Shown: piece after piece, positions 23,401-43,331 of the stretch
How positions within the stretch are numbered: the first letter of the stretch is position 1
Layout of the letters: every line of letters begins with the position of its first letter
Source: an uncultured Thermoplasmata archaeon
Lineage (GTDB): Archaea > Thermoplasmatota > Thermoplasmata > Halarchaeoplasmatales > Halarchaeoplasmataceae
Direction: 5' to 3'
DNA length: 43,331 nucleotides
Assembly: GCA_964454575.1 (NCBI GenBank)
Contig: CAYVTG010000003.1
Location: 1 to 43,331, forward strand
Made by a program: the position numbers and the translations under genes
The notes under the pieces: generated by a model
Told to the model about the DNA's origin: nothing
What the model saw: only the letters and a program-made list of their open reading frames with translations
Database searches by the model: none

Positions 23401-26291
23401 CCGAACGGATATCCTGCTGCGGTCAAAGCATCGCTGTAAAGTGGTTTATTGTCGTCCTCCACCATTCTACTATCATACGGCCCACCGTTGTTAAGACTGT
23501 TATCGTCGTCCACGAGTAATATCTTCGGCAATCTGGAGATGTTGAATGTGTAGTATTTACCATCCCGATCATCGATCTCTTTATTGCCTGCTTCGTCAAC
23601 GGATTCCAAGTAGAAATAGTAGGTCGAAAGTTCGTCGAGTTCGGTGAGTAGTATACGGTGTTCCAATTGTGGTGATGGTGAATAAACCGTATCGGTGGGT
23701 GGTATCGTTTTTCCGTAAACAACTTTTGAAGAACTCGGTTCGTCGGTTTCCCACGATATTTCCGTCGTGGCGTGAGGGAGTATTTCCGTGCTAACGTTAA
23801 ATATGTCCGGTGGTGTTACATCTATACGTGCAGTAGCATTTGTCCATGTGGGATCACCAGTTCTATCGTCTATGTGAAGGTAAGAAGCAGTTATTATGTC
23901 ATCGTCCTGTACCTCTAGTTGGCTGTTGTTCCGGATCGCTTCAGAAGACAGTACCAGTTCGATATCACTGGTAAAAACGCCTATATCATCTCTGATCTCT
24001 GTCAGTTTTATATATTCGATATCTCCTGTAAGATGACTGGTGATATTTACAGAGAATTCGTCTGATAATTCGGTATTAGTTAGTGTGATCAAAGGGCGTG
24101 TTTCCGTATTGTAAACCTCCCTGTCGAAACCGATATTCGTTTTGGACGAGGGCGGAGAGTACGACATGACCATCGCAAAATCCTGATCTACCTTTGAGGT
24201 ACTGGGTACTCCGTCGATGGGTACGTTATGGGCGCGGACCTTGATGGTATATTCCCCTAATTTTAGATCGTTCGTATCTATGTAAACAGCTTCGATATTG
24301 TTGAGATCATCTCTATCTGTCGCATAGGGATCGGACCATCCGTCGTAGAATTGATTGCCTCTGTATACTTTTCCGTCTGGCCCTGTCACTGTAAGGTCAA
24401 GATCGTTCACTAGGGTGGTCAGTGCAGTGGGTGAGGCCGGTGGGTCAGTCCATGTCACTACGACTTTTAGTGGAGTATCAAGACTGCCCACGTAAACGCT
24501 TTTTGTCATGTTATCTCCGGTGGTCAAACCTTTTATCTGGTCTTCGTAAAATGTCTTCCCGTCGGATCGTACCACGTTGCTCAAGTTCAGCCGCCCCCAG
24601 CCTTCGTCGAAGTTCGGTATTCCGCTCCTGTTCATATCGTTAGCACCCATGACCAGGGCAGCCTTTGTGAGTGCGGGACTGGGTTTCACACCGTATTCCT
24701 GTTCATAATATTGTACGAATGTAGCGGCGCCACCTGATACATGCGGTGCAGCCATGCTGGTACCGCTGAGATAATGATAGTGCTCATCTATCACAAATGG
24801 GTAGGAGTGTTTTGTTTCGCTCGATAGTGCTGATGAGATGTAAGTGCCAGGCGCGACGATATCGGGCTTTATACGTCCGTCACTTGTGGGACCGCGGCTG
24901 CTGAAAGATGCCATCTCATCGATGTTGTTCGCTCCGGAAGCCAGATAGGGTCGATAATTCTCAGATGCACCTACGGTTATCACATTCTTCGCCGTTCCCG
25001 GTGCACCTATGGTGGTAGGGTGTGGTCCGTCATTACCTGCTGCAAATACGATTATCATCGGATGTTCCCCCGACGTTCCGGGAAGTGCATCTCTAACGTA
25101 ACCATCGTAGCGTGCGCTGGATGCGGTGTATTCCCCATAAACCCTTGCACCCCAGCTGTTGCTTGATACATAAGCGCCGGAGTTGTAGGTATCGGCCATC
25201 AGGACATTTGGGCTGGGGAATTGTGAAACCCCGTCATCGGTGAACACTTTTTGTGCCACCAATTCAGCGGAAGGTGCAACGCCCATACCGTACAGATAGC
25301 CGTATGAATCGTTTGTACCTGTAGAACCGTCACCTGCTGCAATGCCTGCAACATGAGTCCCGTGTCCGTGTCCATCCCGGGCCGTACCGTCGGGATCGGT
25401 ATAATCAAAGAATTCTGTTACTCTCAGGTCCGGATGAACGATATTGTCCTTCCCCCCGTCTATGCCGGTGTCTACGACAGCCACTTTCTGGCCCGAACCG
25501 TCGTATCCCAAGTAGTTGACGTATGATCCAGGTCCTCCCCATGGTGAACCGGCAGTCCAGTTACCTCCGACGATCTCCGCGGAAGCCTCGTCGGAAAGGA
25601 TCGGAGGTGAAAACGGTTCTATCCAATATAGGTTTCGAATCATGGCCACATCCAGCAGAAACTTCCCGCGGATGCTTCCTTCGATACCCGTGTATGATCT
25701 GGTACTCCATACGGAGAAAACAAGGTCCATGAGTTCGCTGACTAGTTCAATCGAATTTTTAGTGTTTTCATCGTTGAAAATGAGCACGGTTATATTGACA
25801 GTTCCACTGCCATTGACATCTATTTGAGGGTGGATCTTGTGTTCGGGGATATATTCTCCCGCCCATCTTACAGGCAGCGACGATAGTTCATTGGATGATA
25901 TCTTCACACCGCTGTTGATACCGACCAGGTATGCATAATCCGGTATATACTCTATGATTTCAATGCCGCTACTCTGCAATGTTTCCAACCATTCGTTCTC
26001 TATCGGTCCAGGAAACTGGACGATGTAATAACCGGTACCGGATGAAGAAGAGATTGTGTTCAGCGAGGCCATCGTTGAACCATTCTCTACAGGATCAAAA
26101 ACAGCTGATTTCAGCTTTATCTCTACCGGTCCGTTATCTCTTAATCTCCAGTTCAATTCTTCCTCGTTAGATGTCCACCCTAAGGTACCGCCTAGTTGCA
26201 GTGATGATATCAGCATCAACACTAGTACGATAACTACGGAGAACCTCTTAACGATCATCTTGGAAGAAGGCTTCGGCATTTTTGTTGACAT
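14454..26291 (-). CDS. giant (3945 aa) membrane-anchored surface protein: signal/propeptide + subtilisin S8 peptidase + FN3/Ig-like, MAM-like, alpha/beta, Big_5-like and beta-propeller modules + C-terminal TM anchor
   Basis: One uninterrupted ORF. N-terminal hydrophobic segment FSVVIVLVLMLISSL. S8 triad VVDTGID (D274), HGTHVAG (H313), SGTSMAAPH (S512) and oxyanion AAGN. C-terminal TM LGLFLMILMMILFAIAVMVFYL followed by the basic tail RKRRWKRYRK. Confidence 0.9.
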   Translation of the reverse strand: MSTKMPKPSSKMIVKRFSVVIVLVLMLISSLQLGGTLGWTSNEEELNWRLRDNGPVEIKLKSAVFDPVENGSTMASLNTISSSSGTGYYIVQFPGPIENEWLETLQSSGIEIIEYIPDYAYLVGINSGVKISSNELSSLPVRWAGEYIPEHKIHPQIDVNGSGTVNITVLIFNDENTKNSIELVSELMDLVFSVWSTRSYTGIEGSIRGKFLLDVAMIRNLYWIEPFSPPILSDEASAEIVGGNWTAGSPWGGPGSYVNYLGYDGSGQKVAVVDTGIDGGKDNIVHPDLRVTEFFDYTDPDGTARDGHGHGTHVAGIAAGDGSTGTNDSYGYLYGMGVAPSAELVAQKVFTDDGVSQFPSPNVLMADTYNSGAYVSSNSWGARVYGEYTASSARYDGYVRDALPGTSGEHPMIIVFAAGNDGPHPTTIGAPGTAKNVITVGASENYRPYLASGANNIDEMASFSSRGPTSDGRIKPDIVAPGTYISSALSSETKHSYPFVIDEHYHYLSGTSMAAPHVSGGAATFVQYYEQEYGVKPSPALTKAALVMGANDMNRSGIPNFDEGWGRLNLSNVVRSDGKTFYEDQIKGLTTGDNMTKSVYVGSLDTPLKVVVTWTDPPASPTALTTLVNDLDLTVTGPDGKVYRGNQFYDGWSDPYATDRDDLNNIEAVYIDTNDLKLGEYTIKVRAHNVPIDGVPSTSKVDQDFAMVMSYSPPSSKTNIGFDREVYNTETRPLITLTNTELSDEFSVNITSHLTGDIEYIKLTEIRDDIGVFTSDIELVLSSEAIRNNSQLEVQDDDIITASYLHIDDRTGDPTWTNATARIDVTPPDIFNVSTEILPHATTEISWETDEPSSSKVVYGKTIPPTDTVYSPSPQLEHRILLTELDELSTYYFYLESVDEAGNKEIDDRDGKYYTFNISRLPKILLVDDDNSLNNGGPYDSRMVEDDNKPLYSDALTAAGYPFGEYVVTSGQDGPPLEVMRVYEIVIWVTGYNGYSRTRESTLTTKDISNLESYLDEGGSLWLIGPLLANDLHGRGNFVTSGDSFLRNYMGVEALYSNHEPTVNPVKGVFGTFMEDMEGNIESHWKKGVTRYDVAYELKPRAGAYGVVESGSIRYPYHGVAYERDSFRTAFFAWELSFVRPDEMIDSVKRTIDWLLEPPVGVHVSPPEQTAYGLPGDTVEHKLKVFNTGRNGADTFDVYIEDPHWNHDILYTDGTLIKDSNHNDIPDTGRISVSGSKFIIVSVHVPEDAVYRKDDTISVVFRSSLNPSISGKVNIRTVVPIVPTWHDDFEDGRENWSVDFDNVDTLWESGDPSGSEYGPDSSHSGSNCWGTNIDSLYTDHSVTTLTSPPISLKGVNTAELSFMHWYHIESINDGGIVELSYDGGRTWSRLTPKDGYPYTSGIFGGLGGEAYSGANKVWTQEIFDFYEYIDRTIMLRWHFASGDGSTRAGWYIDDVNISVSQAGIRIDEQVQGGAAQPEEDGTYEIYLSNRGSSDDVFNFQHFSDRGWEVNFYDTLWNPISDNISVDAGKTTNLKVNVTVPSDALPGDVPERTEVVFNSSVDPLVGDTVVLFTYPKAHVLLVNDDGGIGSSDYFKNAVSSTHRTFNEWVIAEQGPPDPNCMASHGSVIWFTGNHRGTHSSSLTDSLPDKHRSAIKAYLDMDGKLYLSSQGAGYIADEEGYVNFMTQYFGFRSRLNWWSYPSSAYGVDGHPIGDMMELDIYKNGEFLEELDNRGIYGEVRGNAREIFRLREGFAAATSVDDTFKTVYTGFDFAAVANADTRESLMQRILAWLDPHTHEVNIGSSLDTKEAAEDTTVEYMVRIRNLGETAESFELEANSENDWHVESYHVNGSGPLADTGIIETEGYKDILLRVSVPQDVQPGITDNVTVYAISVTDPNVTHSLMIKTVIPLPKITCEPDLVTHLANPGDSAVIPLRVHNKGGLNDTVDMDYTSIHGWPYDIRFVSTGSSLTDTDGSGERDTGDVPGLTYVDIELVIEVPVNGTNGATDFGTVTFTSSRDASAAFRTDVKTFVPVTLNWTDDMESGKGGWMTLDNNKGTAWELGNVSGHIYGPGTPYSGDNCWGTNIDSNYTKAIATLTSPAIDLKGASSAEISFYHWYSIWGDDPGNSNDDGGFLEVSTDFGETWDYVIPNEGYNETISPGVYPDRCYGQDSNGWLKGSVNLTEYIDNYILFRFYFYGTSTGAAERWAGWYIDDFRVNATFRPAAVETSIDKESTYISSEGHGNYNVSITNLGARNDSFSIIIGTPIDHGIQSSTWTYDLYHQNGTKLTDTNGDGYADTGKIRPQQTVKILLVVTPPNEADPGSFDEKPLTIVSADDDNITDEYTVHTMVPYTVPFYEDIESGEGAWRHYWISGDNIPDNWEISDVRAYSGNHSWWSGPEIATWKNGGDTALETPYFDLTGAPSDLEMTFWHWYFFESYRYSVMDGGIVEIWDNVTGEWSQIYPERGYDRTLNRLHKNPLGGMEAFTDRESFPLWERENFFLGEYANLTVKIRFRVGWNAADRGIKEGWYIDDLYIGSPLPDVELDTGNIETYSWPGETSTFTFEITNSGKIAENFELSALSSGNISVDILDASWSSITETGLMEPGDRFVLIVNATTDDLLSQGMQEHVTIHVDSASSSLVYRRACINISIPMTGPYDSDFEENATDWSHARMDGMTITDNWQITELYGIGDVWWSGKEDGEWPVGGTSALISPYIDLSDTSPIVELSFLHHYSFGDNFYGYGDGGVIEVWDNETETWTRLVPERGYPGEISRRYGNPLEGQQAFIGSSSGWIYDRFDLSGYGGKIIRVRFVVGWDLENTGKNGWYITDVYMGGIENAVVTVDTYGAIQGDQGETNIVVGRLNITSSDHPISVEQFSFKLSGSGNDGDTAGLKIYVDNDGNGVLEPEFDTYLGGGTFIRKKLRIDISGLNVQPGETMGLLLAVDLSDHAPVGTYMGVSLVDSTGVKVAAPHRVIPFENLITSMVTVHGEDTSPILIGHRPTRDATAVDLRPDISIEFDQTMDKLSFERGVLLTDGEESWSPSEISWDDDHRMVTFKPPLQLDLETDYTVTLNASYVKDERENFLDGNGNGKYEGHPKDDYSWSFTTVTPLEHDTFPPRVETTRPSNGSSGVDIEASVVVTFNESMNLSSTPSIEQTAGHDPGGWEFIGWADNHTAVWTHAPWETYDEIALNISDYKDRAGNVGEPYTWSFMTMVTPHDSDWPVFKHDQRRTGASPFETDIEDGGIQWIFETEGEVIMQPVVGEDDIIYVGDHDGYLYALTRTGELRWSKKLTDGVLHASPSVGSDGTIYMGCSEGYMYAIEQDGTLLWSVNPAYDGIMSSPIIGEDGTLFVGSLDGNLYAISPNGTLLWKFRTGGPISSSPAFADDTIYINSFDGSLYAIGVNGTLRWRFDTGQWSWSYNSPAVDENGRVYLGMNVMGDGHLFALNSEGKQIWNHTLNGSVTTSPSIAPSGSVYIGVSTKEEGILRAFRSNGTHLWDYTEAVPNSISDISIDNTGNLFFGSDRLHAVHPDGTEMWLFSPIDMNKGFFNSPTIASKNIIYITHTEGYLYAIGEELEPPSSRADPEGSLPKYTNKRNFTIPFHANDPIGLEKITLFYRINGGEWQMFDTIYLNGTACSSFFNFTAATEGYYEFFTKTENIVGRKELEKTEPEAMTTVDTVEPRSTVGDEEIVYHPQMWFHVMLSVDDDTRLERVLLYSKKDDGPWEVWKNISLVDQELSIYEGVFNFTTSDEGVYDFYSVAIDAAGNMEYKSPTSEYTVVVDKTAPEVLSHRPYSDAIDVMTDTHIEVTFDEDIDGSSVEVWLKKEEGGIVIGDWIVSESDTIIFTPHGPLEHSTNYSVTLRAGDLAGNTVEISWRFETADAKEEYTEEGSQEELSEELGLFLMILMMILFAIAVMVFYLSYSPVIRKRRWKRYRKTNLSDYEKEYFR
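15576..16649 (-). repeat. eight-bladed PQQ-like beta-propeller of the giant protein
   Basis: Eight blades with the pattern (D/E)G.LYA(I/L)...G...W: HDGYLYALTRTGELRW, SEGYMYAIEQDGTLLW, LDGNLYAISPNGTLLW, FDGSLYAIGVNGTLRW, GDGHLFALNSEGKQIW, EEGILRAFRSNGTHLW, SDRLHAVHPDGTEMW, TEGYLYAIGEE. Confidence 0.7.
17796..18338 (-). repeat. MAM-like module 4 (type B)
   Basis: aa 2652-2832: WWSGKEDGEWPVGGTSALISPYIDL...VELSFLHHYSF....DGGVIEVWDNETETWTRLVPERGY...NPLEGQQAF...GWYITDVY. Confidence 0.6.
18687..19244 (-). repeat. MAM-like module 3 (type B)
   Basis: aa 2350-2535: WWSGPE..TWKNGGDTALETPYFDL....LEMTFWHWYFFE....DGGIVEIWDNVTGEWSQIYPERGY...NPLGGMEAF...GWYIDDLY. Confidence 0.6.
19644..20195 (-). repeat. 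MAM-like module 2 (type A)
   Basis: aa 2033-2216. Shares NCWGTNIDSNYT..ATLTSPAIDLKGASSAEISFYHWY...DDGGFLEVSTDFGETW...GWYIDDF with module 1. Confidence 0.6.
21918..22445 (-). repeat. MAM-like / choice-of-anchor-J-like module 1 (type A) of the giant protein
   Basis: aa 1283-1458: W.DDFEDG..W......W.(G).......P.SG.NCWGTNIDS.YT....TLTSPPISLKG...AELSF.HWY......DGG.VE.S.DGG.TW...GWYIDD. Confidence 0.6.
24567..25604 (-). other. subtilisin-like S8 catalytic domain of the giant protein
   Basis: Asp codon 25470-25472, His codon 25353-25355 and Ser codon 24756-24758, each checked against the DNA. An I9-like propeptide block GYYIVQFPGPIENEWLETLQSSGIEIIEYIPDYAYLV lies upstream. Confidence 0.85.
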
Positions 26292-29751: not shown

Positions 29752-30537
29752 TTGGCATGGAGCACTAAAACAACAAAAGACGAAGGTAAAGAGCAAGCAA
29801 AGAAAGAAGTTAAACGACCTGTAAAGAGCACGGTTTCTATAGATAGGGTACCTACGGAAGTAGTCGGCCTTGATGAAAAGATGGAAGGCGGCGTTCCCAG
29901 TGGTTTCATAGTACTTATAGCTGGTAACAGTGGTTCTATGAAGACATCCGTGGCTTTTAGCATACTTTATAACGCTTACAAGAAGCACAACAAAAAAGGC
30001 ATGTACATCTCGCTGGAACAGAGCAAGGGCAGCATCATCACCCATGTGGAGCGGTTGGGAATGCCATTGAAAGGTATGGCGAACCCGGTGATCATCGACC
30101 TGTCCAAAGTGAGAAAAGATACAGGTAAAGCAGGTAAAGAAGAGAAGATCGATTGGCTGGGCTCAACGCTGAAAGTCATCAAAAAGTACAAGGAAGCCTT
30201 CGGATGCGAAATACTCGCTTTCGACTCTCTAGCCGCATTATATGCCGTAAACGAATTCGACAACCCAAGGAAGGATCTTTTCTATTTCTTTGAAGGCCTC
30301 AGAGATATAGGTCTCACTACATTCTTGATATCGGAGATACCTAAAGGCCAGGACGTTTATGGAATATATGGTGTGGAGGATTTCCTTTCGGACGGAATAC
30401 TCCATTTGAAGGCAGAGGAGATGGATACTGGAACTAATATCTACCTTAAAGTTGTAAAGATGAGACAGACCCATCACAAGAGAGGCTTCATGCCTTTGAT
30501 CTTCGATGACGGCAAGTTTGAAGTATTGAAAAGGTGA
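29752..30537 (+). CDS. KaiC-like RecA-superfamily ATPase with non-canonical Walker A
   Basis: The KaiC pattern RVPTEVVGLDEKMEGGVPSGFIVLIAGNSGSMKTS has GNSGSMKT in place of GxxGxGKT. ISLEQ replaces the usual EE, Walker B is EILAFDSL, and the C-terminal block is VKMRQTHHKRGFMPLIFDDGKFEV. TTG is the only in-frame start that keeps the conserved N-terminal block. Confidence 0.8.
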   Translation: MAWSTKTTKDEGKEQAKKEVKRPVKSTVSIDRVPTEVVGLDEKMEGGVPSGFIVLIAGNSGSMKTSVAFSILYNAYKKHNKKGMYISLEQSKGSIITHVERLGMPLKGMANPVIIDLSKVRKDTGKAGKEEKIDWLGSTLKVIKKYKEAFGCEILAFDSLAALYAVNEFDNPRKDLFYFFEGLRDIGLTTFLISEIPKGQDVYGIYGVEDFLSDGILHLKAEEMDTGTNIYLKVVKMRQTHHKRGFMPLIFDDGKFEVLKR

Positions 30538-30541: not shown

Positions 30542-31705
30542 ATGGAAATAGTAAACGAACTCAAAGCTATCCATGGAATCGGCGAAAAAAGGGCGGAACG
30601 ATTAGTCGATTCCGGTATAAAAAATATGAACGACCTAGCCAAGAAGTCAAAAGAAGAACTTGCGGATCTGGGTCTTAACGAACGTGTTATAAGGAATGTT
30701 TTGGAATATTTCGAAGACTTCAATGTGGTTGAGGTACAAAGTGATAATACAAAACACGAGGAATACGAATCGCAGATACTCGAGTGGGCGGCCGAAGGCT
30801 ACTATGTTGTTCCCGTCGAAGAAGAACTGAACGACGCTGGGGACCCCAAAAAGGTGATGGATAAATTCGGTAATGCAGTAAAATTATCCCGGGATATGCG
30901 AAACAAGATCATAGACATGAATGTAGCAGAACATCTTGACGAAGCTGAAAATCTCCTGGATATGACATTCGATCTTGGCAAGATGGATCAATGGAAAGAT
31001 AGTTTTGAAGATTTGGTCAAGAAGATAGATGCTCGCGACTTGAGGTATGAATTGGAGGATATGAAGATACCTCAATTACAGGACCGCATAGATGCTGTTG
31101 TATCACAACTAAAGGAAGAAATGGATGCCGAATCCGTAAGAGATGAAGTTGAAGATATAAAACGGTCTTATCAGGAAAACTTTTTTGTTGAAGAGTTCAT
31201 CAAAGATTCGGATGAAAAGGAATATCGAGAATCTGTTCAAGTACACCACAAGGAAACTAAGATACCTTCTAAAGCCATGCCTATAGATGATATATTCCTC
31301 TTCCACGGACCTAAAGGCATACTCTTGATAAAATGGTACAAGCACAAACTGTCTCCCGAAAGAGGGGTAAAGGGCGCTAGAAATATAGTGAGTGATATAC
31401 GCAACTACATAAGAACGGCAAAAAAATTCAAACCTAACATGCTGTTGAAGATGAAGGCTGCGGACGGTACGAATATAATCTTGACCCGAGGAAAGACACT
31501 TGTACTTGCAGCAACGGTTTCCGGAGGGATGTCCGATTACGGTCGAAAAGCACTCGTTAATTCAGTAAATTTGATCGAAGGGGTAGACGGGCCGATCTTA
31601 AAAGATTGGAACCGTAAGAAAGGAGAACCAGAGTACTTAGAAAAAGTGATGAAAGCACTGCTCCTTCTATCGTTAAGGAACAGAGATAAAGGGGGCAAAA
31701 GATAA
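30542..31705 (+). CDS. helix-hairpin-helix protein with an acidic helical middle and a C-terminal Roadblock/LC7-like domain (uncharacterised)
   Basis: N-terminal HhH LKAIHGIGEKRAERLVDSGIKNMNDLAKKSKEELADLG. The C-terminal alpha/beta block (aa 247-375) is paralogous to part of the 37309..38805 product. The ATG lies 3 nt after a GGTGAT that contains the upstream TGA stop. Confidence 0.7.
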   Translation: MEIVNELKAIHGIGEKRAERLVDSGIKNMNDLAKKSKEELADLGLNERVIRNVLEYFEDFNVVEVQSDNTKHEEYESQILEWAAEGYYVVPVEEELNDAGDPKKVMDKFGNAVKLSRDMRNKIIDMNVAEHLDEAENLLDMTFDLGKMDQWKDSFEDLVKKIDARDLRYELEDMKIPQLQDRIDAVVSQLKEEMDAESVRDEVEDIKRSYQENFFVEEFIKDSDEKEYRESVQVHHKETKIPSKAMPIDDIFLFHGPKGILLIKWYKHKLSPERGVKGARNIVSDIRNYIRTAKKFKPNMLLKMKAADGTNIILTRGKTLVLAATVSGGMSDYGRKALVNSVNLIEGVDGPILKDWNRKKGEPEYLEKVMKALLLLSLRNRDKGGKR

Positions 31706-31851
31706 ATCCCGCCATCGGAAAAAACATAGGAAAAATACTCGATTCCCTAGCAAGCAAGAAAAGAAGGCAGATATACGTATGCGACCTTCCATCCGGTAAA
31801 CGTACCGAACTTTTAACCACCGGAGGTCAGGGTAAATACATCCGATACAAA

Positions 31852-34263
31852 TTGCCTACCTCCGATGATATCGGCGATATCGCACTCATACCTACTATAC
31901 TATCTGCACTTTCACATTCTACCGATGGTAAGATCAAGATATCTAAGAGAGACCATAGGATAAAAGTTAAGCGAAAAAAGATATCGACCCACACACTTAT
32001 CATCCTTGATGTAAGCAGCTCGATGATGGAAGGCAGCAAGTTGATGGTCGCAAAAAAATGCCTTGATGAAATCTTTTTAGATACCTATCAAAAACGTGAT
32101 AGGATCGCTGTTATCACTGCCGGGGGTGAGCAGGCCGACTACCTTTTACCCTTCACATCTAATATCGAGAAGGGCAGAGAATTGATAGATTCTATCGGGT
32201 TCGGCGGCACTACACCGCTTTCTTCCGGTCTACGAAGTGGAATTCGGGTCCTTGAAGATATAATGAGAAAAGAACCCTGGATGGTACCTATAATGGTAAT
32301 AATTACCGATGGAGGTGCAAATGTTCCATTATCTATGGGAGGTAGTATCCAAGATGAATTCTCCCGCCTATCGTCTGAAATGGACTATGTGAACATAAGG
32401 CCATTAGTTATCAATGTGGGTGACGATTCGGCTCTCTGCGAAGAGATGGTATGGAAGACCGATGGTAGATATCTATCTTTAACTGTTGAGGACGAATACA
32501 TCTCTTCGGATCTTGAGCTTGAAAAAGAAGTGGAAGATATACTGCACGGGATATTACTTTCTTTTGTTGGTAGTAACACCACTTGTTTGTCCTATGACGG
32601 TTATAGCATGGAAGCCTTAAGTAAAGTAAAAGAGATATTGGAAGATCATCCTATCAAGATAGAGGTAAATGAAGACTGTCACTACGGATGTTCACCACAT
32701 GATGACCCTTCTGATCTTTGTCGAGAGTGTCTGTTGAAAGTCAACGAGGATATGAACACTATATCAAGGGCGGCAGGCATCGGTTATGTCTCAGAACACC
32801 AAAACGAAAAAGATCTTCGAGGAGAGCTATTTGTGAGATACCTCGTTCAACCGGGTACATTGATGAAAGCTCACAACGGTATTCTTTTCGTGGAAGACGA
32901 AGCCGCTTATGATAAATTTTCAGATCTAATCGAAACAGGGATAAATAAGGGTGAATGTAATGCATCCAACGCCGAATACACAGAATCATATCCCTTCAGA
33001 CCACATGGTGTGATCGTGCGGCGAGATCAAGATTATATCGACTTGGACGACAAGTTCCATGTTCGGTACAAAGATGTAGTAGAAGAAAAACTGTGGATGG
33101 TCAACGCGGAAAGAGATTCAAAAACCGACCATACTAAATTCATGGAAGAATTAGGATCGAGTCGTTTGGAGAAGATAGATATCATAAACGGTCTGATAGC
33201 CGGTGATATATACGTAAATGTCCCGGATTACATCAACGATCTACTTCGGAATGCCGTTGACCCCGATCAGATCAATAATATAATCGGCCTGGCCAAAGCT
33301 TCTGCCGCGCTCAAGGGTAAAGATAAGGCAAATCTGGAGGACCTTGCAGATGCGCTGAAACAAACAGATATCTCCATGGCCATCGATGAAAGCAATTCCC
33401 ATCAATATCTTTTTAGTAAACTCGCATTCTCTCTGGCCGCCAAAGATGAAATCAAACTTTCACTCGTTGACGGATATACATATGATGAATTTAGCGATGC
33501 GATAGATATCATTTCTGAATTACCTATCACCATCGAAACATTACCGGAGTGCTCGAATAACTGCCACCCAAAGAGTGATGATCTGTGTCCGGAATGCAGG
33601 ATAAGATGGGATGATAAAGATCCGGAAACAGTCGAAATACCTTTACCGCTGGTTCGTATAAAGGGAAATGAATCCCTTCAACAACTCAGAGGTGAATTAT
33701 TCGTTAAATATGTATTGACCTCGGACACACTTTTGAAAGCTAACAGAGGCTTACTAGTCATCGAATCCATAAAAGATATGGATACGGATACTATTGCATT
33801 TTTAAAAGAATTATTGACCACGGGGAAATTCACAGTAAGGAACGAAGAACATTCCCAATCTTTCCATGTTGACCTCTCTGTGATCGCACTTAAAGACAGC
33901 AACAGATACAACGATCTGATCGATCATTCTATAGGACATGTGATCACAAAAGAAGATTACGAAGATATTCTACCACCGATATTCGGCGGGGATAGAGGTG
34001 ACCAATTTATAGAAAGAACACTGGAGCGTATCGAAGAAACACGAAGTAACGAAACAGAACTATCTGACGAATTACTTGACTATATCATCAGAGTCTGTAT
34101 GGAATTGGGGATAAACAGATATGATGCTGAGATAAAGATAGAGCGATTGGCAAAAGCAATGTCGGTATGGAATGGAAGTGAAGTTACCAACGAAGTGATA
34201 AATAAAAGCATCAGCACACTTGCACCTTTGATGGGGGAAGGTATGCGAGATAATATAAGGTGA
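31852..34263 (+). CDS. vWA (MIDAS) domain protein fused to two tandem P-loop-less ChlI/BchI-like AAA+ modules; true start uncertain
   Basis: ChlD-like pre-vWA linker and vWA with MIDAS LIILDVSSSM...GGTTPL...VIITDGGAN. Two modules then align by eye to ChlI: LLKANRGLLVIESIKDMDTDTIAFLKELL / LMKAHNGILFVEDEAAYDKF versus [29 protein letters not shown]. Each module has a CxxxC..CxxC cluster and a lid helix, and neither has a GxxGxGK[ST]. Confidence 0.8.
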   Translation: MPTSDDIGDIALIPTILSALSHSTDGKIKISKRDHRIKVKRKKISTHTLIILDVSSSMMEGSKLMVAKKCLDEIFLDTYQKRDRIAVITAGGEQADYLLPFTSNIEKGRELIDSIGFGGTTPLSSGLRSGIRVLEDIMRKEPWMVPIMVIITDGGANVPLSMGGSIQDEFSRLSSEMDYVNIRPLVINVGDDSALCEEMVWKTDGRYLSLTVEDEYISSDLELEKEVEDILHGILLSFVGSNTTCLSYDGYSMEALSKVKEILEDHPIKIEVNEDCHYGCSPHDDPSDLCRECLLKVNEDMNTISRAAGIGYVSEHQNEKDLRGELFVRYLVQPGTLMKAHNGILFVEDEAAYDKFSDLIETGINKGECNASNAEYTESYPFRPHGVIVRRDQDYIDLDDKFHVRYKDVVEEKLWMVNAERDSKTDHTKFMEELGSSRLEKIDIINGLIAGDIYVNVPDYINDLLRNAVDPDQINNIIGLAKASAALKGKDKANLEDLADALKQTDISMAIDESNSHQYLFSKLAFSLAAKDEIKLSLVDGYTYDEFSDAIDIISELPITIETLPECSNNCHPKSDDLCPECRIRWDDKDPETVEIPLPLVRIKGNESLQQLRGELFVKYVLTSDTLLKANRGLLVIESIKDMDTDTIAFLKELLTTGKFTVRNEEHSQSFHVDLSVIALKDSNRYNDLIDHSIGHVITKEDYEDILPPIFGGDRGDQFIERTLERIEETRSNETELSDELLDYIIRVCMELGINRYDAEIKIERLAKAMSVWNGSEVTNEVINKSISTLAPLMGEGMRDNIR
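31987..32496 (+). other. von Willebrand factor A domain with DxSxS MIDAS motif
   Basis: DVSSS at aa 53-57 (nt 32008-32022, checked in the DNA), T of GGTTPL, and D of ITDGGAN. Confidence 0.8.
32524..33381 (+). repeat. ChlI-like pseudo-AAA+ module 1
   Basis: aa 225-510. The Walker A position reads LLSFVGSNTTCLSYDG. Cys cluster CHYGCSPHDDPSDLCREC (nt 32677-32730). Lid-like INDLLRNAVDPDQINNIIGLAKASAALKGKDKANLEDL. Confidence 0.65.
33394..34260 (+). repeat. ChlI-like pseudo-AAA+ module 2
   Basis: aa 515-803. The Walker A position reads IKLSLVDGYTYDEF. Cys cluster CSNNCHPKSDDLCPEC (nt 33550-33597). Lid-like LLDYIIRVCMELGINRYDAEIKIERLAKAMSVWNGSEVT. Confidence 0.65.
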
Positions 34264-34270: not shown

Positions 34271-35068
34271 ATGGAAAAAAGAACCGGAAATTTTCCATTC
34301 ACAGCCGTTGTTGGCCAAGATCCATTGAAGAGATTTCTATCTATGTGCGCTATATCTTCTGATCTCGGCGTTGTGATGATCCAAGGACCTAGTCACACCA
34401 TGAAATTACGGCTTGTTAACGCCATGTGTCATATAGCAGATGGTATATCGGATAAAGATACAGATACCTTTTTCATAGCCAATTCTTACGGATCTTATGA
34501 TGTTGAAAAGATCATAAACGATACTAAGGTTGAGTACGTAGTCATCCCATCATTTGAACGCTACGCAAAATCCAAAAAAGAAGATATATTGGATTCCTGG
34601 GGAAGTAAAAAAGAACGCGACAATTTATTGATTTTGCTCGAAAACAACGACTCCTCAGATAGTTACAAAAATATCGATTTTTATTTACGCGTCAAACCGA
34701 TAGATGATATCGAACGGCGTATAGAGATGGTGAAGCGAGAGAGAGATTATCTATCTAACAGAGAAGCTTTTACACAAAGATTCGATGATGTGGAATCTGA
34801 ATTCATAAACCGGATCGGTAAAGCCAGGAAGATACTTCCTGAGATCAACATAGCAGAGACTTTAAAAATAGAATTACGCGAGAAATTGAGTGGCATATTT
34901 TCAGCGAAAGATAGTCAAAGACCTTATGATCTTGTTTTAAAGTATGCACGAGCCGAAGCGGCGTTCAACAACAGACGATGGGTTTCACAAAACGATATCG
35001 AATCCGCATTTAGCTATCTCAACTATCAAACCGTCCAAAAAGTTCCTTCTCCTTACGTATCAAACTGA
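34271..35068 (+). CDS. short ChlI/BchI-like protein with a degenerate P-loop (pseudo-AAA+)
   Basis: N-terminus FPFTAVVGQDPLKRFLSMCAISSDLGVVMIQGPSHTMKLR parallels ChlI fPFtAIVGQeemK..LLl..idp.iGGVli.GdrGTGKST, but GPSHTMKLR replaces GxxGTGKST. The C-terminal lid block DDIERRIEMVKRERDY...KARKILPEINI...RPYDLVLKYARAEAAFNNRRWVSQNDIESA matches the ChlI lid. The ATG lies 6 nt after GGTGAT. Confidence 0.7.
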   Translation: MEKRTGNFPFTAVVGQDPLKRFLSMCAISSDLGVVMIQGPSHTMKLRLVNAMCHIADGISDKDTDTFFIANSYGSYDVEKIINDTKVEYVVIPSFERYAKSKKEDILDSWGSKKERDNLLILLENNDSSDSYKNIDFYLRVKPIDDIERRIEMVKRERDYLSNREAFTQRFDDVESEFINRIGKARKILPEINIAETLKIELREKLSGIFSAKDSQRPYDLVLKYARAEAAFNNRRWVSQNDIESAFSYLNYQTVQKVPSPYVSN

Positions 35069-36035
35069 TCTCAACTTTGTCCAATTCATCCTTTCTTGCC
35101 ATCATGGATGATATCATCTCTTGCAGATATTTTCTCTTTTCTTCTAATTCTTCTATCTTTTCATCGTACTTGGCTTCCGTCCTCTTCAAGTCCATCTCTC
35201 TTTTCGACAATTCTTCGCTTCTTATATCGATGGTTTTCTGGATCTCTTCTAGTTTTGCTTCTCTCTGTTTGATCTCCCGACGTAGATCTAGTTTTCTATT
35301 CTCTAGTTTCTGTATTTCTTCGTTCAATTCCTCTTCCTTAAACTCAAGTTCCGTTTCCCTCATATCTGCATCGGCAAGACGCTCTTCGAGATTTGTCTCT
35401 AATTCTTTTAGTTCGTTCTCCTTATCTAAGAGTTCATCACGTCTTCTTTCAAGGTTTTCTCTTAATTCGTTTAGTCCCTCTTCTCGACTCTCGACACCTT
35501 TCTGTTTTTCTTCGAAGATACGCTTTTCATGCTGTAATTTTTCTTCACCGGAGATGATATCCTGGACTCTCTTGTTCAACATCTCGTCTCTCTTAGCCAT
35601 CTCTTCCTTCATTATGTCGAGTCGTTCCCTCAACTTGAGGGCTTTTTCCATCTCCTCTTCTCCTTCGCTCTGAATAGTTAAAGCCTTCAATTCCATCTCT
35701 TCCGCTTCCACCTTTCTTTCGTCGAGTTCTTCTTTGTAAGATCTCAATTTAGACTTAACGCTCTCAATTTCGTTTTCTTTTTCTTCGATCTTCTCTTCCC
35801 TCTGGTTCAATCTGGATGAAAGTTCATCTATATGAGATCGTTCTTCGGATATCTCTTTTTCCCACTCTTTGAGTTCCGATTCTTTTTGTTGAAGTTCTTT
35901 TTCTTTGTTTTCAAGAGTGGTCTTTCTGCTTTGTAGTATATTTGTAAGGTCAGAAACACTACCCACTCTACGTTTAACACGACGGACTATACCTTGTTTT
36001 TCTTCATCATCACTTTCCTTTTCTTCCTTTTCCAT
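35019..36035 (-). CDS. E/K/R-rich long coiled-coil protein
   Basis: About 300 aa of continuous heptad-like charged sequence (KEKELQQKESELKEWEKEISEE...LEEKRKYLQEM). The complementary-strand Ser-rich ORF is its shadow. I prefer ATG 36035 over the TTG at 36044. The 3' end overlaps the convergent upstream gene by 50 nt. Confidence 0.6.
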   Translation of the reverse strand: MEKEEKESDDEEKQGIVRRVKRRVGSVSDLTNILQSRKTTLENKEKELQQKESELKEWEKEISEERSHIDELSSRLNQREEKIEEKENEIESVKSKLRSYKEELDERKVEAEEMELKALTIQSEGEEEMEKALKLRERLDIMKEEMAKRDEMLNKRVQDIISGEEKLQHEKRIFEEKQKGVESREEGLNELRENLERRRDELLDKENELKELETNLEERLADADMRETELEFKEEELNEEIQKLENRKLDLRREIKQREAKLEEIQKTIDIRSEELSKREMDLKRTEAKYDEKIEELEEKRKYLQEMISSMMARKDELDKVEISLIRKEKELFGRFDS

Positions 36036-36111
36036 CTTGATCAAGGATTCTCATCAAAACATAAATACTTTCTGTCTTAAACACCCGTTATTTTTATTTA
36101 CATCCATTGGC

Positions 36112-37305
36112 ATGAAGGTTCATAAAAACAAATGGGGAATCTACTTGAAAACCGGACTAAACTACCTGCTGTACGAGGAACGACCTGATAAAAGCTTCGT
36201 GTTACTTGAAGAACTGATCAAAGAACACCCAGTACTGTGTATAACTACAATTTACCCAGAAAAGCTTAGAAAGATGTATGATCTGGAAGCCGCAGCCATA
36301 GTATGGTTAACAGATTCAGAGGGTGGTGACGACACAGTCCGTCCCGAAAGGTTGGACTTCGAGCTGTCCAAAGGTGTGATGAACTTTGTAACCGACAATC
36401 CGGGATGTGTAGTGTTGATAGAGGGCTGCGAGTATCTCATGCTGGAGAACGATTTTAAGAACGTCAAGAAATTCTTTAAACGTATAAACGATCTAGGCTC
36501 CGTGAACGGATCTACGATCATGGTATCCGTTAGTCCAGACGCCTTCGATAGAGAGACCGTTGCCGCCTTTTCAAAGGATTTTGATAAAGCATGCAAACCG
36601 GAAGAGCTTTCGGAGAAAATACCTGAAACAGCCCCCGCTAAAACGGAAAAAGAATCACCTAAACCTCAACCTACCCCTCCGCAACCAGCAAAACAGCCGG
36701 AAGTTGCCAGCCAACCACCCACAGAAGAACCATCGGAATCTACCACTGATCTTTTAGCCAAGGCAGATAGGTATATGAAGAAGCGAGATTACAACCAAGC
36801 GGTTTCTTTTTACGATAAATTACTCAGATCCGAACCTCATAACACAAGAGCATTGTTCAACAAAGCTGTTTGCCTCCAGATGTCAAACCGTTTACAGGAG
36901 GCAGTCAAGGTTTACGACCAATTACTAGAGATAAATCCACGTGATATAGATTGTCTTATCAATAAAGGTCTGGCACTGAGAAAGATGGGAGATATGCAGG
37001 GGGCTGTGGAAACCTATCGAAAGGCGGGAGAGATCAACCCAGGCGACTCTACCGTTTGGAATAACCTTGGTATAGCACTAAAAAGCATGGGTAAGTGGGA
37101 AGAAGCCATAGATGTATATGACAAAGGACTTTCTGCAAGACCGAACGATGCCGGGTTGTGGAGTAACAAAGGTGTTGCCCTTAAAGAAGCAGGCAGGCTG
37201 CAGGAAGCCTTGGATTGTTATAATAAAGCACTCGCCATCGACCCATCTAGAACGATGACTAAACAAAATAAATCTCTACTGGAAGAAGAGATGAAACGAA
37301 ATTAA
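36112..37305 (+). CDS. DUF835 (inactivated KaiC/RecA-like) domain - P/Q/E-rich linker - TPR repeat protein
   Basis: DUF835 signature LNYLLYEERPDKSF...HPVLCITTIYPEKLRKMY......IVWLTD.......VRPERLDFELSKGVMNFV...GCVVLIEGCEYLMLENDFKNVKKFFKRINDL....GSTIMVSVSPDAF. Then KPQPTPPQPAKQPEVASQPP and five TPR units (A..FYDKLL..EP.N..ALFNKA...). Start set at ATG 36112 because the upstream part of the tracked ORF overlaps the divergent gene. Confidence 0.8.
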   Translation: MKVHKNKWGIYLKTGLNYLLYEERPDKSFVLLEELIKEHPVLCITTIYPEKLRKMYDLEAAAIVWLTDSEGGDDTVRPERLDFELSKGVMNFVTDNPGCVVLIEGCEYLMLENDFKNVKKFFKRINDLGSVNGSTIMVSVSPDAFDRETVAAFSKDFDKACKPEELSEKIPETAPAKTEKESPKPQPTPPQPAKQPEVASQPPTEEPSESTTDLLAKADRYMKKRDYNQAVSFYDKLLRSEPHNTRALFNKAVCLQMSNRLQEAVKVYDQLLEINPRDIDCLINKGLALRKMGDMQGAVETYRKAGEINPGDSTVWNNLGIALKSMGKWEEAIDVYDKGLSARPNDAGLWSNKGVALKEAGRLQEALDCYNKALAIDPSRTMTKQNKSLLEEEMKRN

Positions 37306-37308
37306 AGC

Positions 37309-38805
37309 TTATATCCAAGTCAAACTTTCCAGTATAAGAGTTTTTTCAAGTAATTGGTGCTTTCTTTCTTCGTTGCTATCAAGAGCGATAGCATCATTAT
37401 AAAATTTCAATGCGCTATCCGTGTTAAAACTACGTAAGTACTGATCACCTGCTTTTATGGAATATTTTACCGCTTTTTTACGGATGATATCGTATTTAGA
37501 TGCGTAGGGCAGCAACAATTCGGCGATGCGGATGTTGTATTGAGGGGAATTGTTTTTGATCAGTGCGGCCGCGACCCTCAACTCTATCTCCTTTTTTTCT
37601 TTTCCTTGTATACCTTCGAGTGCACGTTCCCTTAGGCGGCTATTGGCAAATCTATTACCTTTTATTATGCCGGCCTTCTTCAGTTTATCCATCACATCTC
37701 CGATATTTATATCGGTTTTTTTGAGCGCTTGTTTCAACACGTCCGTATCAAAGGTACCGATCATCGCGGCATAACTAAGTAATGTCATAGCTTTGGGTTC
37801 CACATCGGTTAATTTTGAGCGTACGAGTTCTTCTATATCTATGTCTGAACGTATAGAAATATGTGTGCAATTACCTTCGTCCTCCTGTTCCCTTATAAAC
37901 TCCCCCACGGCTTCGTTAAATTCAGTTTCATCTAGAACATCCGTATTGTGCTGACAGATCACGACGGCATCTGTGTTATGTACCACATGTTTTATCAAGT
38001 CCAAGGAAAGCGGATCTATCGTTTCGATATCATCAAATAAGAAGGCTAGTTGGTCACCCTTCGCTGAGATCTCATCGACTTTCTCTGATAGATATGTTTT
38101 GATCTCTTCTTTATTTTCCATGATATCTTCCATATCTAAGACGCCGTCATATCTTCCCGACCCTAGGAACGTTTTATTCAGTTCTTCGGTGATATTATTT
38201 AGGAAAGACTCATTCGTGTTTCCCGACCACTCTTTAAGATCCGTAAGATGATTTTCATTGATATATCGGATGGTTTTATCCAGGTCACCTTCTATCGACC
38301 TTGATATGTCTCCTTTGTACGTGACGATGAGAACACAGTCTTCTCCCCTTCTGATACGTATGGTAAGATTTCCTAGATTTTCATCCCTGTATGACAGTGC
38401 ATCCAAACCGCCTCCGTCTTCTTTTTCTTCTCCACTCCATTGTTGAATGGAATCTTTAACAAAGTTACTCACAGCGTTCAACATCCCAGAGAAGATGTCA
38501 GCATCCATACTGGATTCTTCACGATGAGCTTCCGCAAGTAGCATCCCGTTCATATCTGAGAGGTATACCATCATGACTTTAGGCGGAGTTCTGATCCTCA
38601 ACATCTCCGAATGTTTTGGTAAGGCTCTGCTGAACACATTATCACTTTTGATGGATGCAGTGGCCTCACGCACATCGAAATCTGTCAATACGTTCTTTGC
38701 AAGTGTAAGACCGTCTTCCGCACCTATCTCACGTTCTATGATAACAAAATTTCCTTTATCTAGAGCTCCGCGAACTTTCCCCGAAATATCCTTTGAACTG
38801 TCCAT
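37309..38805 (-). CDS. Roadblock-like domain + STAND/AAA_16-like helical region lacking a P-loop + TPR-like C-terminus
   Basis: aa 76-205 are paralogous to the C-terminus of the 30542..31705 product. QLAFLFDDIETIDPLSLDLIKHV resembles the Walker-B/DDxxWxD block of AAA_16 regulators, but no GxxxxGK[ST] is present anywhere. The C-terminus has TPR-like ALKFYNDAIALD. Confidence 0.65.
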   Translation of the reverse strand: MDSSKDISGKVRGALDKGNFVIIEREIGAEDGLTLAKNVLTDFDVREATASIKSDNVFSRALPKHSEMLRIRTPPKVMMVYLSDMNGMLLAEAHREESSMDADIFSGMLNAVSNFVKDSIQQWSGEEKEDGGGLDALSYRDENLGNLTIRIRRGEDCVLIVTYKGDISRSIEGDLDKTIRYINENHLTDLKEWSGNTNESFLNNITEELNKTFLGSGRYDGVLDMEDIMENKEEIKTYLSEKVDEISAKGDQLAFLFDDIETIDPLSLDLIKHVVHNTDAVVICQHNTDVLDETEFNEAVGEFIREQEDEGNCTHISIRSDIDIEELVRSKLTDVEPKAMTLLSYAAMIGTFDTDVLKQALKKTDINIGDVMDKLKKAGIIKGNRFANSRLRERALEGIQGKEKKEIELRVAAALIKNNSPQYNIRIAELLLPYASKYDIIRKKAVKYSIKAGDQYLRSFNTDSALKFYNDAIALDSNEERKHQLLEKTLILESLTWI

Positions 38806-42626: not shown

Positions 42627-43331
42627 TTAGCCCCATTTCTCCTTTACCAACCCTGTCAGCTTCTCTTTGCTAAATTCACCTACTTCAAACGGCTGCTTTC
42701 GCATACGGTGTGGCAATGCCAACTCGGAGGCTTGTATGATATCTTCTATCGTAACGGACGTACGATCGTTGTATGCCGCATTGGTTATTGCTGTTCTAGC
42801 TATGATTATGTCTCCTCTATGGCCGTCTATATCGAATTCTCTACATATACGGCAGATCAAATTCAGCTTCTCGTCAGACAATTCAACATCTTTGAGTTTC
42901 TTATTAGCCCTATGGATTTTTTCTCTTAAATTTTTTTCCTCGTCTTTATGCCTTCTCATCAAACCGTAGGGATCTTCAAGAAAATCACGGTTTATCTTGA
43001 TCAATTCTAGTCTTTTATCTGGATCACTGATGGTCTCGGTCTCTACTTGAAGTGAAAATCTGTCCAGGAGCTGAGGTCGTAGAAATCCTTCCTGAGGATT
43101 CATACTGGCGACTAGCATGAAATCGGACATATAGTTGGTAGAGATCCCTTCTCTTTCAACAGTAACGACCTTCATGGCTGCTACATCTAAAAGAAGGTCA
43201 ACGATATGGTGATCTAATAAGTTGATCTGATCTATGTACAATATATTCTTATTTGCTCTCGCTAGGAGTCCCGGCTCGAATGATTTAACCCCATCCTGAA
43301 GAACTTTTTCCACATCTATGGTACCGATCAA
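42627..43331 (-). CDS. magnesium-chelatase subunit I (ChlI/BchI)-like AAA+ protein, C-terminal 234 aa; N-terminus is off the window
   Basis: LIGTIDVEKVLQDGVKSFEPGLLARANKNILYIDQINLLDHHIVDLLLDVAA...VEREGIS...NPQEGFLRPQLLDRFSL...DGHRGDI...LPHRMRKQPF is collinear with plant/bacterial ChlI/BchI as I recall them. The leading M in the ORF track is an artefact of the window edge (TTG = Leu). Confidence 0.85.
   Translation of the reverse strand: MIGTIDVEKVLQDGVKSFEPGLLARANKNILYIDQINLLDHHIVDLLLDVAAMKVVTVEREGISTNYMSDFMLVASMNPQEGFLRPQLLDRFSLQVETETISDPDKRLELIKINRDFLEDPYGLMRRHKDEEKNLREKIHRANKKLKDVELSDEKLNLICRICREFDIDGHRGDIIIARTAITNAAYNDRTSVTIEDIIQASELALPHRMRKQPFEVGEFSKEKLTGLVKEKWG

Follow-up and report, generated by a model that had tools for sequence, protein, structure and literature searches.

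A protein with a vWA domain followed by two predicted ATPase-dead ChlI-like modules in Thermoplasmata-lineage archaea

In this study, we analysed a stretch of 43,331 nucleotides (nt) from an uncultured Thermoplasmata archaeon of the Halarchaeoplasmataceae (assembly GCA_964454575.1, contig CAYVTG010000003.1, positions 1-43,331 of the forward strand), hereafter the window. The window is a segment of archaeal chromosome with genes for topoisomerase VI A and B, a proteasome beta subunit, FttA/aCPSF1 and ribosomal protein S2. A gene on its forward strand, listed at 31852-34263 as an open reading frame (ORF) of 803 amino acids (aa) from a TTG codon, encodes a vWA domain followed by two modules derived from the AAA+ protein ChlI. 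This order is the reverse of that in ChlD and BchD, in which the AAA+ module comes first and is followed by a linker and the vWA domain. Both ChlI-like modules lack the motifs for handling ATP and are predicted to be ATPase-dead. From sequence and gene order, we consider it moderately likely that the product of this vWA gene serves a ChlI-type AAA+ assembly as a non-catalytic adaptor or scaffold; the protein would have arisen from an order-reversed ChlD-like ancestor.

The original prediction placed the vWA domain first and two complete ChlI-like units after it, and Pfam and TIGR matches, the BchD structure 2x31_A, hhalign and Foldseek all agreed with this order. The protein as listed begins with a ChlD-type pre-vWA helix (aa 1-44, GDIALIPTILSALSHS…; 31852-31983, +), which was located by TIGR02442 alignment. 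This helix (GDIALIPTILSAL) matches the same element of canonical ChlD-like proteins, for example 'SDIALIPTIRAAVLR' in protein P0015. The vWA domain follows at 31984-32496 (+) and was detected by Pfam VWA_2 at aa 48-154 (E 5e-11). Positions 430-640 of the 641 positions of NCBIfam TIGR02442, the C-terminal linker and vWA domain of ChlD-like proteins, align to aa 5-210 (E 5e-51), and positions 403-538 of the BchD-ChlD family TIGR02031 align to aa 25-162. A profile of the family also matched the vWA domain of BchD in 2x31_A (E 3e-8). The metal ion-dependent adhesion site (MIDAS) is intact and consists of D53-V-S55-S-S57 (nt 32008-32022), T120 and D153. Across 16 family members, T120 and D153 are invariant and D53, S55 and S57 are at least 90% conserved.

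Module 1 (aa 219-512; 32506-33387, +) and module 2 (aa 513-803; 33388-34260, +) each comprise a base plus a lid. When aligned to the canonical ChlI profile with hhalign, module 1 matched template positions 17-315 of 325 (probability 99.9%, E 7e-38) and module 2 matched positions 19-322 (100%, E 4e-44), so that significant ChlI matches were obtained for both halves of the region proposed to be ChlI/BchI-like (aa 225-803). Module 1 also had weak Pfam matches to Mg_chelatase (aa 332-383) and AAA_lid_2 (aa 479-502). In the module 2 region, the family profile matched residues 55-322 of the ChlI structure 6l8d (E 1e-5), and TIGR02030 matched aa 545-666 (E 3.7e-9). A Foldseek search with the AlphaFold2 (AF2) model of the vWA protein returned BchI 1g8p as the best match (1.4e-11), followed by ChlI 8osg/8osf and then vWA domains. 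The two modules match each other with E 1e-18 by BLASTP and E 1e-54 by profile-profile comparison. They are paralogues from an internal duplication, as judged from these alignments.

We then compared the ATPase motifs by aligning family members with canonical ChlI, in which Walker A is GPKGSGKST, Walker B is ILYVDE, sensor-1 is TMNPEEG and the Arg finger is ELRPQ. The P-loop equivalent of module 1 is DGYSMEAL (aa 249-256; DGYSMEALS in the alignment; 32596-32619, +), and that of module 2 is DGYTYDEF (from aa 540; DGYTYDEFS in the alignment; 33469-33492, +). Of the two Walker A strings proposed earlier, LVDGYTYDEF of module 2 was thus correctly placed; VGSNTTCLSYDG of module 1 is the preceding strand, one structural element off. 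Both proposed Walker B strings held up in the alignment, where the equivalents are ILFVED in module 1 (aa 344-349; 32881-32898, +) and LLVIES in module 2 (aa 634-639; 33751-33768, +). No GK[ST] was found in either module in any of the 13 family members counted, and no GxxGxGK[ST] motif had been overlooked. The canonical Walker B hhhhDE, the sensor-1 Asn and the Arg finger are missing from both modules in all aligned members, and in the wider family the positions of the Walker B acidic pair carry E, K or N followed by D or N. The Arg at the sensor-2 position of canonical ChlI is absent from module 1 and is found in module 2 as R756, in the close subfamily only. Loss of all these motifs predicts that both modules are ATPase-dead.

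Each module carries a cluster of four cysteines (Cys4) with the pattern CxxxCx(7-9)CxxC. Cluster 1 (C276, C280, C290 and C293; 32677-32730, +) lies in an insert after the Walker A helix, and cluster 2 comprises C567, C571, C579 and C582 (33550-33597, +). Both coordinate ranges had been given exactly in the original prediction, and all eight cysteines are invariant across 16 sequences. The same CxxxCx8CxxC cluster occurs in motif-intact homologues, namely P0012, the ChlI proteins of loci L001 and L023, and the ChlD-like and ChlI proteins of Desulfofundulus (L036). The Cys4 insert is, on this comparison, ancestral and common to the motif-intact archaeal ChlI/ChlD homologues, and we rejected the cluster as a novelty of the vWA protein. 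The two clusters probably hold structural zinc.

Every domain of the protein is under purifying selection. In comparison with the homologue of locus L006, the proportion of nonsynonymous differences (pN) was 0.07 for the vWA domain, 0.24 for module 1 and 0.23 for module 2, and that of synonymous differences (pS) was saturated at 0.71-0.81 (about 0.8 for the vWA domain and 0.76 for module 1). The dead modules diverge approximately three times faster than the vWA domain, yet they are clearly constrained.

A partner gene of 265 aa (34271-35068, +) starts 7 nt past the stop codon of the vWA gene and encodes a third ChlI-derived module, which is shortened and predicted to be dead. It matched TIGR02030 (E 1.2e-19) and ChlI 8osf/6l8d (E 7e-10), and its AF2 model (pLDDT 71.3, pTM 0.71) aligned with ChlI 6l8d at a TM score of 0.73-0.74 (E 2.5e-12). 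In the subfamily of the window, the partner has a degenerate Walker A (GPSHTMKL) and no DE pair; it has lost the Cys4 hairpin together with part of its core, and the lid is intact. Together with modules 1 and 2, the partner brings the ChlI-derived modules of the window's operon to three, and none of them has an ATP site that looks functional. In nearly every locus with downstream sequence, the gene immediately 3' of the vWA gene is ChlI-like. In the wider family, this partner has about 330 aa. Most copies retain the Cys4 cluster, the sensor-1 region and a Walker A of GEAGTGKST; the Arg finger is lost, and LVER or IAR stands in place of the Walker B DE.

Two further ChlI genes, which look active, are loosely linked to the vWA gene in several loci. 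At the right end of the window lies a ChlI-type AAA+ ATPase gene cut by the window boundary (42627-43331, -; tblastn 77% identity, E 5e-112). Its product retains the region of sensor-1 and the Arg finger (SMNPQEGFLRPQLLDRF), and its Walker B sequence is ILYIDQ (ILYIDQINLL), a natural Glu-to-Gln change. It is a homologue of a 348-aa ChlI that adjoins a canonical, membrane-anchored ChlI in L001, L002 and L023, where the two genes lie a few kb from the vWA gene on the opposite strand. The first gene of this pair, here ChlI(DQ), encodes about 350 aa (L001, 16794-17840; L023, 16432-17511) with an intact P-loop in the full-length homologues, the sensor-1 region, the Arg finger and Walker B ILY[IV]DQ. 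The Glu-to-Gln change is conserved across diverged subfamilies. In engineered AAA+ proteins, the same change in Walker B traps ATP. The second gene (L001, 17840-19846; L023, 17499-20093; -) encodes about 670-865 aa with N-terminal transmembrane segments, a Glu/Lys-rich coiled coil of approximately 180 residues and a ChlI with fully canonical motifs. Since a canonical ChlI is fused here to transmembrane segments and a coiled coil, the protein looks like a membrane-anchored ChlI motor. Any copy of this second gene belonging to the window would be located past the right end. With the window end included, four loci from two diverged subfamilies carry the linked pair. The earlier proposal of a regulatory or adaptor subunit fits this synteny, with a ChlI-like gene directly downstream of the vWA gene and an active-looking ChlI pair in four loci.

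The distribution of the architecture was examined in three ways: 5.8 billion proteins were searched with a word index, 1.84 billion representatives were searched exhaustively with a profile, and loci were sought in one genome per GTDB species. The first search found nine close members, including the protein of the window, and all the named ones were from Thermoplasmata/Thermoplasmatota metagenome-assembled genomes (MAGs). In the second, the full-length architecture was present in about 12-14 clusters at 50% identity; the remaining strong matches covered the vWA part only, at the C-terminus of canonical AAA-linker-vWA proteins. The third gave about 21 full-length loci, labelled as Thermoplasmata, Methanomassiliicoccales, Proteinoplasmatales, Methanobacteriota or unclassified archaeal MAGs. 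Among the databases searched, the full-length architecture is restricted to uncultured Thermoplasmata-lineage MAGs. Matches by tblastn that spanned query residues 9-368 had suggested a vWA-first order in bacteria and methanogens as well, and this was ruled out. In the Desulfofundulus locus (L036), a canonical operon, the ChlD-like gene ends with its vWA part right beside the following chlI gene, and a tblastn match runs across both.

A shorter relative, with about 600 aa, shares the N-terminus and the vWA domain and carries a single dead module (P0024, P0027, P0028, P0033, P0050 and the protein of L029). P0019 (860 aa, from an ENA contig of 2836 nt) has nearly identical modules 1 and 2 and resembles the one-module protein of L029; either its module was duplicated very recently or the repeat is an artefact of assembly. 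The names of family members in the databases are automatic only: 'VWA domain-containing protein', 'Mg-chelatase subunit ChlD' (JGI, for some members) or 'hypothetical'. We found no description of the vWA-ChlI-ChlI order in the literature, in line with the earlier remark that it is not recognised among described chelatases or MoxR-vWA systems. The arrangement is new, and its building blocks are the known pairing of a ChlI/ChlD-type AAA+ with a vWA domain.

The start of the vWA gene was also re-examined. The position proposed in the original prediction, 31852, is too far downstream, and a conserved coding stretch precedes it. The vWA frame is open back to 31684, and the N-terminal extension in the same reading frame (31702-31851, +) encodes a basic segment, …KNIGKILDSLASKKRRQIYVCDLPSGKRTELLTTGGQGKYIRYK, equivalent to the end of the ChlD linker; the residues encoded upstream of 31852 include KNIGKILDSLASK. 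This segment is present in the homologues P0002, P0006 and P0008 and in the wider family. In the 38-40 codons preceding 31852, 12 synonymous and no non-synonymous codon changes separate the window from L006, which indicates that the stretch is coding. No ATG, GTG or TTG occurs in frame within this conserved stretch (31684-31851), and a canonical start codon was likewise not found 5' of the same segment in L001, L004 and L006. Gene-caller models are cut short at the N-terminus, for example in P0003 and P0007, because a canonical start codon is missing. By sequence comparison, the real start of the protein is placed approximately 46 codons 5' of 31852, at about 31702-31735. The candidates are ATA at 31702, ATC at 31714, which is aligned with the Met of P0002, and ATA at 31726 and 31735. 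The ATA at 31702 overlaps the TAA stop of the upstream helix-hairpin-helix (HhH) gene. A frameshift from the HhH gene, with respect to which the vWA gene is in frame -1, was considered for the missing start; no recognisable slippery heptamer was seen. The candidate non-canonical ATA or ATC start would be the simpler solution.

In the close subfamily, the vWA gene lies in a conserved row. In the window, this row begins with a KaiC-like single-domain ATPase (29752-30537, +; Pfam KaiC 2.9e-39) and a 387-aa HhH protein (30542-31705, +; HHH_5 1.3e-7 and synteny), which are followed by the vWA gene and its partner. After these come a coiled-coil protein of 341 aa (35019-36044, -), a protein with DUF835 and TPR (36109-37305, +; DUF835 1.2e-24, with TPR matches) and a conserved 498-aa protein without a family match (37309-38805, -). 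The last gene of the row encodes about 450-500 aa across the subfamily, and it and the coiled-coil gene are on the opposite strand. The first four genes are 4-8 nt apart or overlapping. Given such a tight row of KaiC-like, HhH, vWA and partner genes, the assembly probably has a link to a KaiC-type ATPase module. PMC5847659 lists DUF835 under the name iKaiC, for a KaiC domain that has lost its activity.

The KaiC-like protein is 81-98% identical within the close subfamily and 57-58% identical in L010, L023 and L028, and identity of the vWA protein within the close subfamily is lower, at 41-68%; in L006, the KaiC-like protein is 98% identical and the adjacent vWA protein 68%. The P-loop of the KaiC-like protein has Met for the last Gly (G-N-S-G-S-M-K-T), and distant relatives have GHAGTMKS. 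The KaiC and HhH genes are also linked to the family in the distant loci L010, L023, L028 and L034, and elsewhere in the wider family most loci have housekeeping genes (FAA hydrolase, PriL, EF-2 and SRP54) as their annotated neighbours. Three further families co-occur in L001, L002, L005, L010, L011 and L023 and are absent from the window (L010 7533-15585; L011 9030-17997; L001 19846-21944; L023 20078-22352; L005 95-2275); they had no Pfam match or were not scanned. One is a membrane protein of approximately 215-260 aa, which in L023 has hydrophobic segments resembling membrane anchors. The second has approximately 450-550 aa; to the eye, its L023 sequence shows a hydrophobic, signal-like segment at the N-terminus and a membrane anchor at the C-terminus. 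The third has approximately 700-1080 aa.

Several other features were observed in this region. The 3' ends of the partner gene (34271-35068, +) and the convergent coiled-coil gene (35019-36044, -) overlap by 50 nt. The 498-aa protein (37309-38805, -) is 27% identical over approximately 250 residues to a 1171-aa AAA_16/TPR STAND-like protein of L001 (3551-7066, -). A 3945-aa ORF of the window (14454-26291, -) contains subtilase, MAM-like and Ig-like domains and beta-propellers, and the G+C content of its region is 0.47-0.50, compared to about 0.41-0.44 in the rest of the window.

It has been reported that the AAA+ site of ChlD is non-catalytic and allosteric and that ChlD cannot do without its MIDAS (PMC3789969). 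As a rule, the AAA+ motors of this clade act via a single vWA adaptor that holds the client (bioRxiv 10.64898/2026.07.21.739949; PMC7159879). By analogy, the two dead modules of the vWA protein and the downstream ChlI-like protein would dock onto, or occupy positions in, a ring with ATP-competent ChlI paralogues. These paralogues would be ChlI(DQ) and its membrane-anchored canonical neighbour. The MIDAS face may capture an acidic residue of a client protein, which would be consistent with the motor-adaptor-effector scheme of ChlI-ChlD, CobS-CobT, NorQ-NorD and CbbQ-CbbO. The architecture may have originated by fusion of a chlD-like gene (AAA, linker, vWA) with the chlI gene directly following it in a canonical operon such as that of L036. 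Fission inside the linker would then have given a vWA-AAA protein, for which the one-module form of approximately 600 aa fits as an intermediate, and duplication of the module would have produced the two-module form.

Several points weigh against this adaptor interpretation. All ChlI-derived modules of the immediate operon of the window are predicted to be ATPase-dead, so that a ring, if formed, might work without nucleotide. In the window, about 8 kb separate the linked active-looking ChlI from the vWA gene, three housekeeping genes lie between this ChlI and the conserved cluster, and most wider-family loci have no motif-intact ChlI within 10 kb. The AF2 model of the vWA protein has only moderate confidence (pLDDT 71.6, pTM 0.55), and the family has been seen in MAGs only.

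The protein could instead belong to a class I (ATP-dependent) chelatase for Mg, Co or Ni as its true D subunit, with the ChlH/CobN-type subunit encoded elsewhere in the genome. The best family matches are indeed TIGR02442 'putative cobaltochelatase' and BchD-ChlD, JGI calls some members 'Mg-chelatase subunit ChlD', and a ChlI-like gene is adjacent, as in chelatase operons. However, the scores are far under the curated cut-offs (173.8 vs 779.45 bits for TIGR02442; 116 vs 499.55 bits for TIGR02031 BchD-ChlD). ChlD needs its Walker A Lys, as the K49A mutant is inactive (PMC3789969), and the P-loop is absent from the vWA protein; the partner ChlI of the window subfamily is dead as well. No ChlH, BchH or CobN gene was identified among the ORFs annotated in the window and in flanks of up to 10 kb of about 20 loci, where the annotated genes had housekeeping roles or no known function. 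With no H/N subunit nearby, the P-loop lost and the scores below the cut-offs, we regard a chelatase D subunit as very unlikely. Membership in an anti-virus defence or conflict system of the vWA-MoxR type is more unlikely still. Pairs of vWA and MoxR-clade AAA+ proteins are recurrent cores of conflict systems (PMC7159879), but PADLOC gave no significant match for any of seven cluster proteins (the vWA protein, its partner and five neighbours), and the weak matches fall on TPR and coiled-coil regions. The genes also keep stable positions among housekeeping genes (primase PriL, EF-2, SRP54, proteasome and FttA) and do not lie in variable islands, and effector domains are absent.

We further considered the vWA protein as a scaffold that stands alone and needs no nucleotide, in a signalling or DNA-associated module centred on KaiC; the dead modules would then be protein-binding platforms only, with no functional link to an AAA+ motor. 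Some probability, well short of an even chance, attaches to this explanation, which is possible especially for the window subfamily. There, the KaiC-like, HhH, vWA and partner genes form a tight row with gaps of 4-8 nt, the coiled-coil, DUF835(iKaiC)-TPR and 498-aa proteins are conserved alongside, and all three ChlI-derived modules of the operon are dead; the linkage of KaiC and HhH genes in L010, L023, L028 and L034 points the same way. Many wider-family loci, however, have no KaiC, HhH or DUF835 within 10 kb, yet the ChlI-like partner is found in nearly every locus with downstream sequence and in most cases retains its P-loop. The motif-intact ChlI pair also recurs in four loci from two diverged subfamilies. 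It is barely credible that the gene is a relic in decay, a pseudogene or a product of faulty gene calling or assembly. In favour of this, no catalytic motif survives, a canonical start codon is missing from the conserved N-terminus, and P0019, with its two near-identical modules, may be misassembled. Against this, about 21 independent MAGs keep the frame open for approximately 850 codons, every domain has a pN far lower than its pS, the eight cysteines are invariant, the MIDAS residues are invariant or at least 90% conserved, and synteny is kept.

The adaptor interpretation is set in context by comparison with known systems. The vWA protein resembles ChlD, BchD and TIGR02442 proteins in its non-catalytic ChlI-type AAA+ module, its pre-vWA segment, its MIDAS vWA domain and the adjacent ChlI-like gene, and it shares the Cys4 insert with archaeal TIGR02442-type members. 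Unlike ChlD and BchD, which have one AAA+ module, it has two, although a one-module form also exists, and its P-loop is wholly lost, whereas ChlD needs K49 (PMC3789969). It also differs from them in lacking the acidic proline-rich linker, in having no identified ChlH/CobN nearby and in scoring below the family cut-offs. In the MoxR-class pairs (CobS-CobT, NorQ-NorD, CbbQ-CbbO, RavA-ViaA and CoxD-CoxE), a helix-2-insert AAA+ gene likewise adjoins a MIDAS vWA gene, and the expected logic of motor, adaptor and client would be the same here. The MoxR-class adaptors, however, have a helical N-terminal region and a C-terminal vWA domain and no AAA+, whereas the present adaptor would carry two dead AAA+ modules. 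The neighbouring AAA+ is dead in the window subfamily, and most wider-family copies keep Walker A and have no Walker B acidic pair.

Midasin/Rea1 and dynein belong to the same AAA+ clade and have concatenated modules with short linkers, some of them non-catalytic, and midasin carries a MIDAS on the same chain. Both are eukaryotic, with six modules that make a whole ring in one chain, and the MIDAS of midasin is C-terminal, after a long linker. In contrast to such a six-module chain, two modules are found in the vWA protein and one is encoded separately. The delta and delta' subunits of the clamp loader and some ORC subunits are AAA+ folds without nucleotide binding or hydrolysis that take a structural place beside active paralogues; they come from another AAA+ clade, lack a vWA domain and do not form tandem modules in one chain. 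The vWA protein is similar to them in its dead AAA+ folds and differs in its vWA domain, its tandem modules and its clade.

A bolder form of the scaffold can also be drawn. The vWA protein and its partner provide three dead folds, and two such sets might close a six-position, nucleotide-free pseudo-AAA+ ring with MIDAS and four structural zinc sites, which would couple the KaiC-type ATPase module to the membrane-anchored ChlI motor and its surface proteins. We regard this as doubtful and quite unlikely. If true, a whole AAA+ ring would have been turned into a passive scaffold in a lineage-specific archaeal machine.

ChlI/ChlD, MoxR-vWA and midasin all pair an AAA+ motor with a MIDAS, and in the vWA protein this pairing has been rebuilt in the opposite order. 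The automatic name 'Mg-chelatase subunit ChlD' is probably misleading for these genes. The family suggests that the AAA+ part can be duplicated and, as predicted here, fully inactivated while selection persists. It would therefore provide a natural test of the role of the non-catalytic AAA+ module in ChlD-like adaptors once nucleotide binding is removed. The dead ChlI modules, ChlI(DQ), the membrane-anchored ChlI, the KaiC-like and iKaiC proteins and the surface proteins together define a conserved, uncharacterised gene set of uncultured Thermoplasmata.

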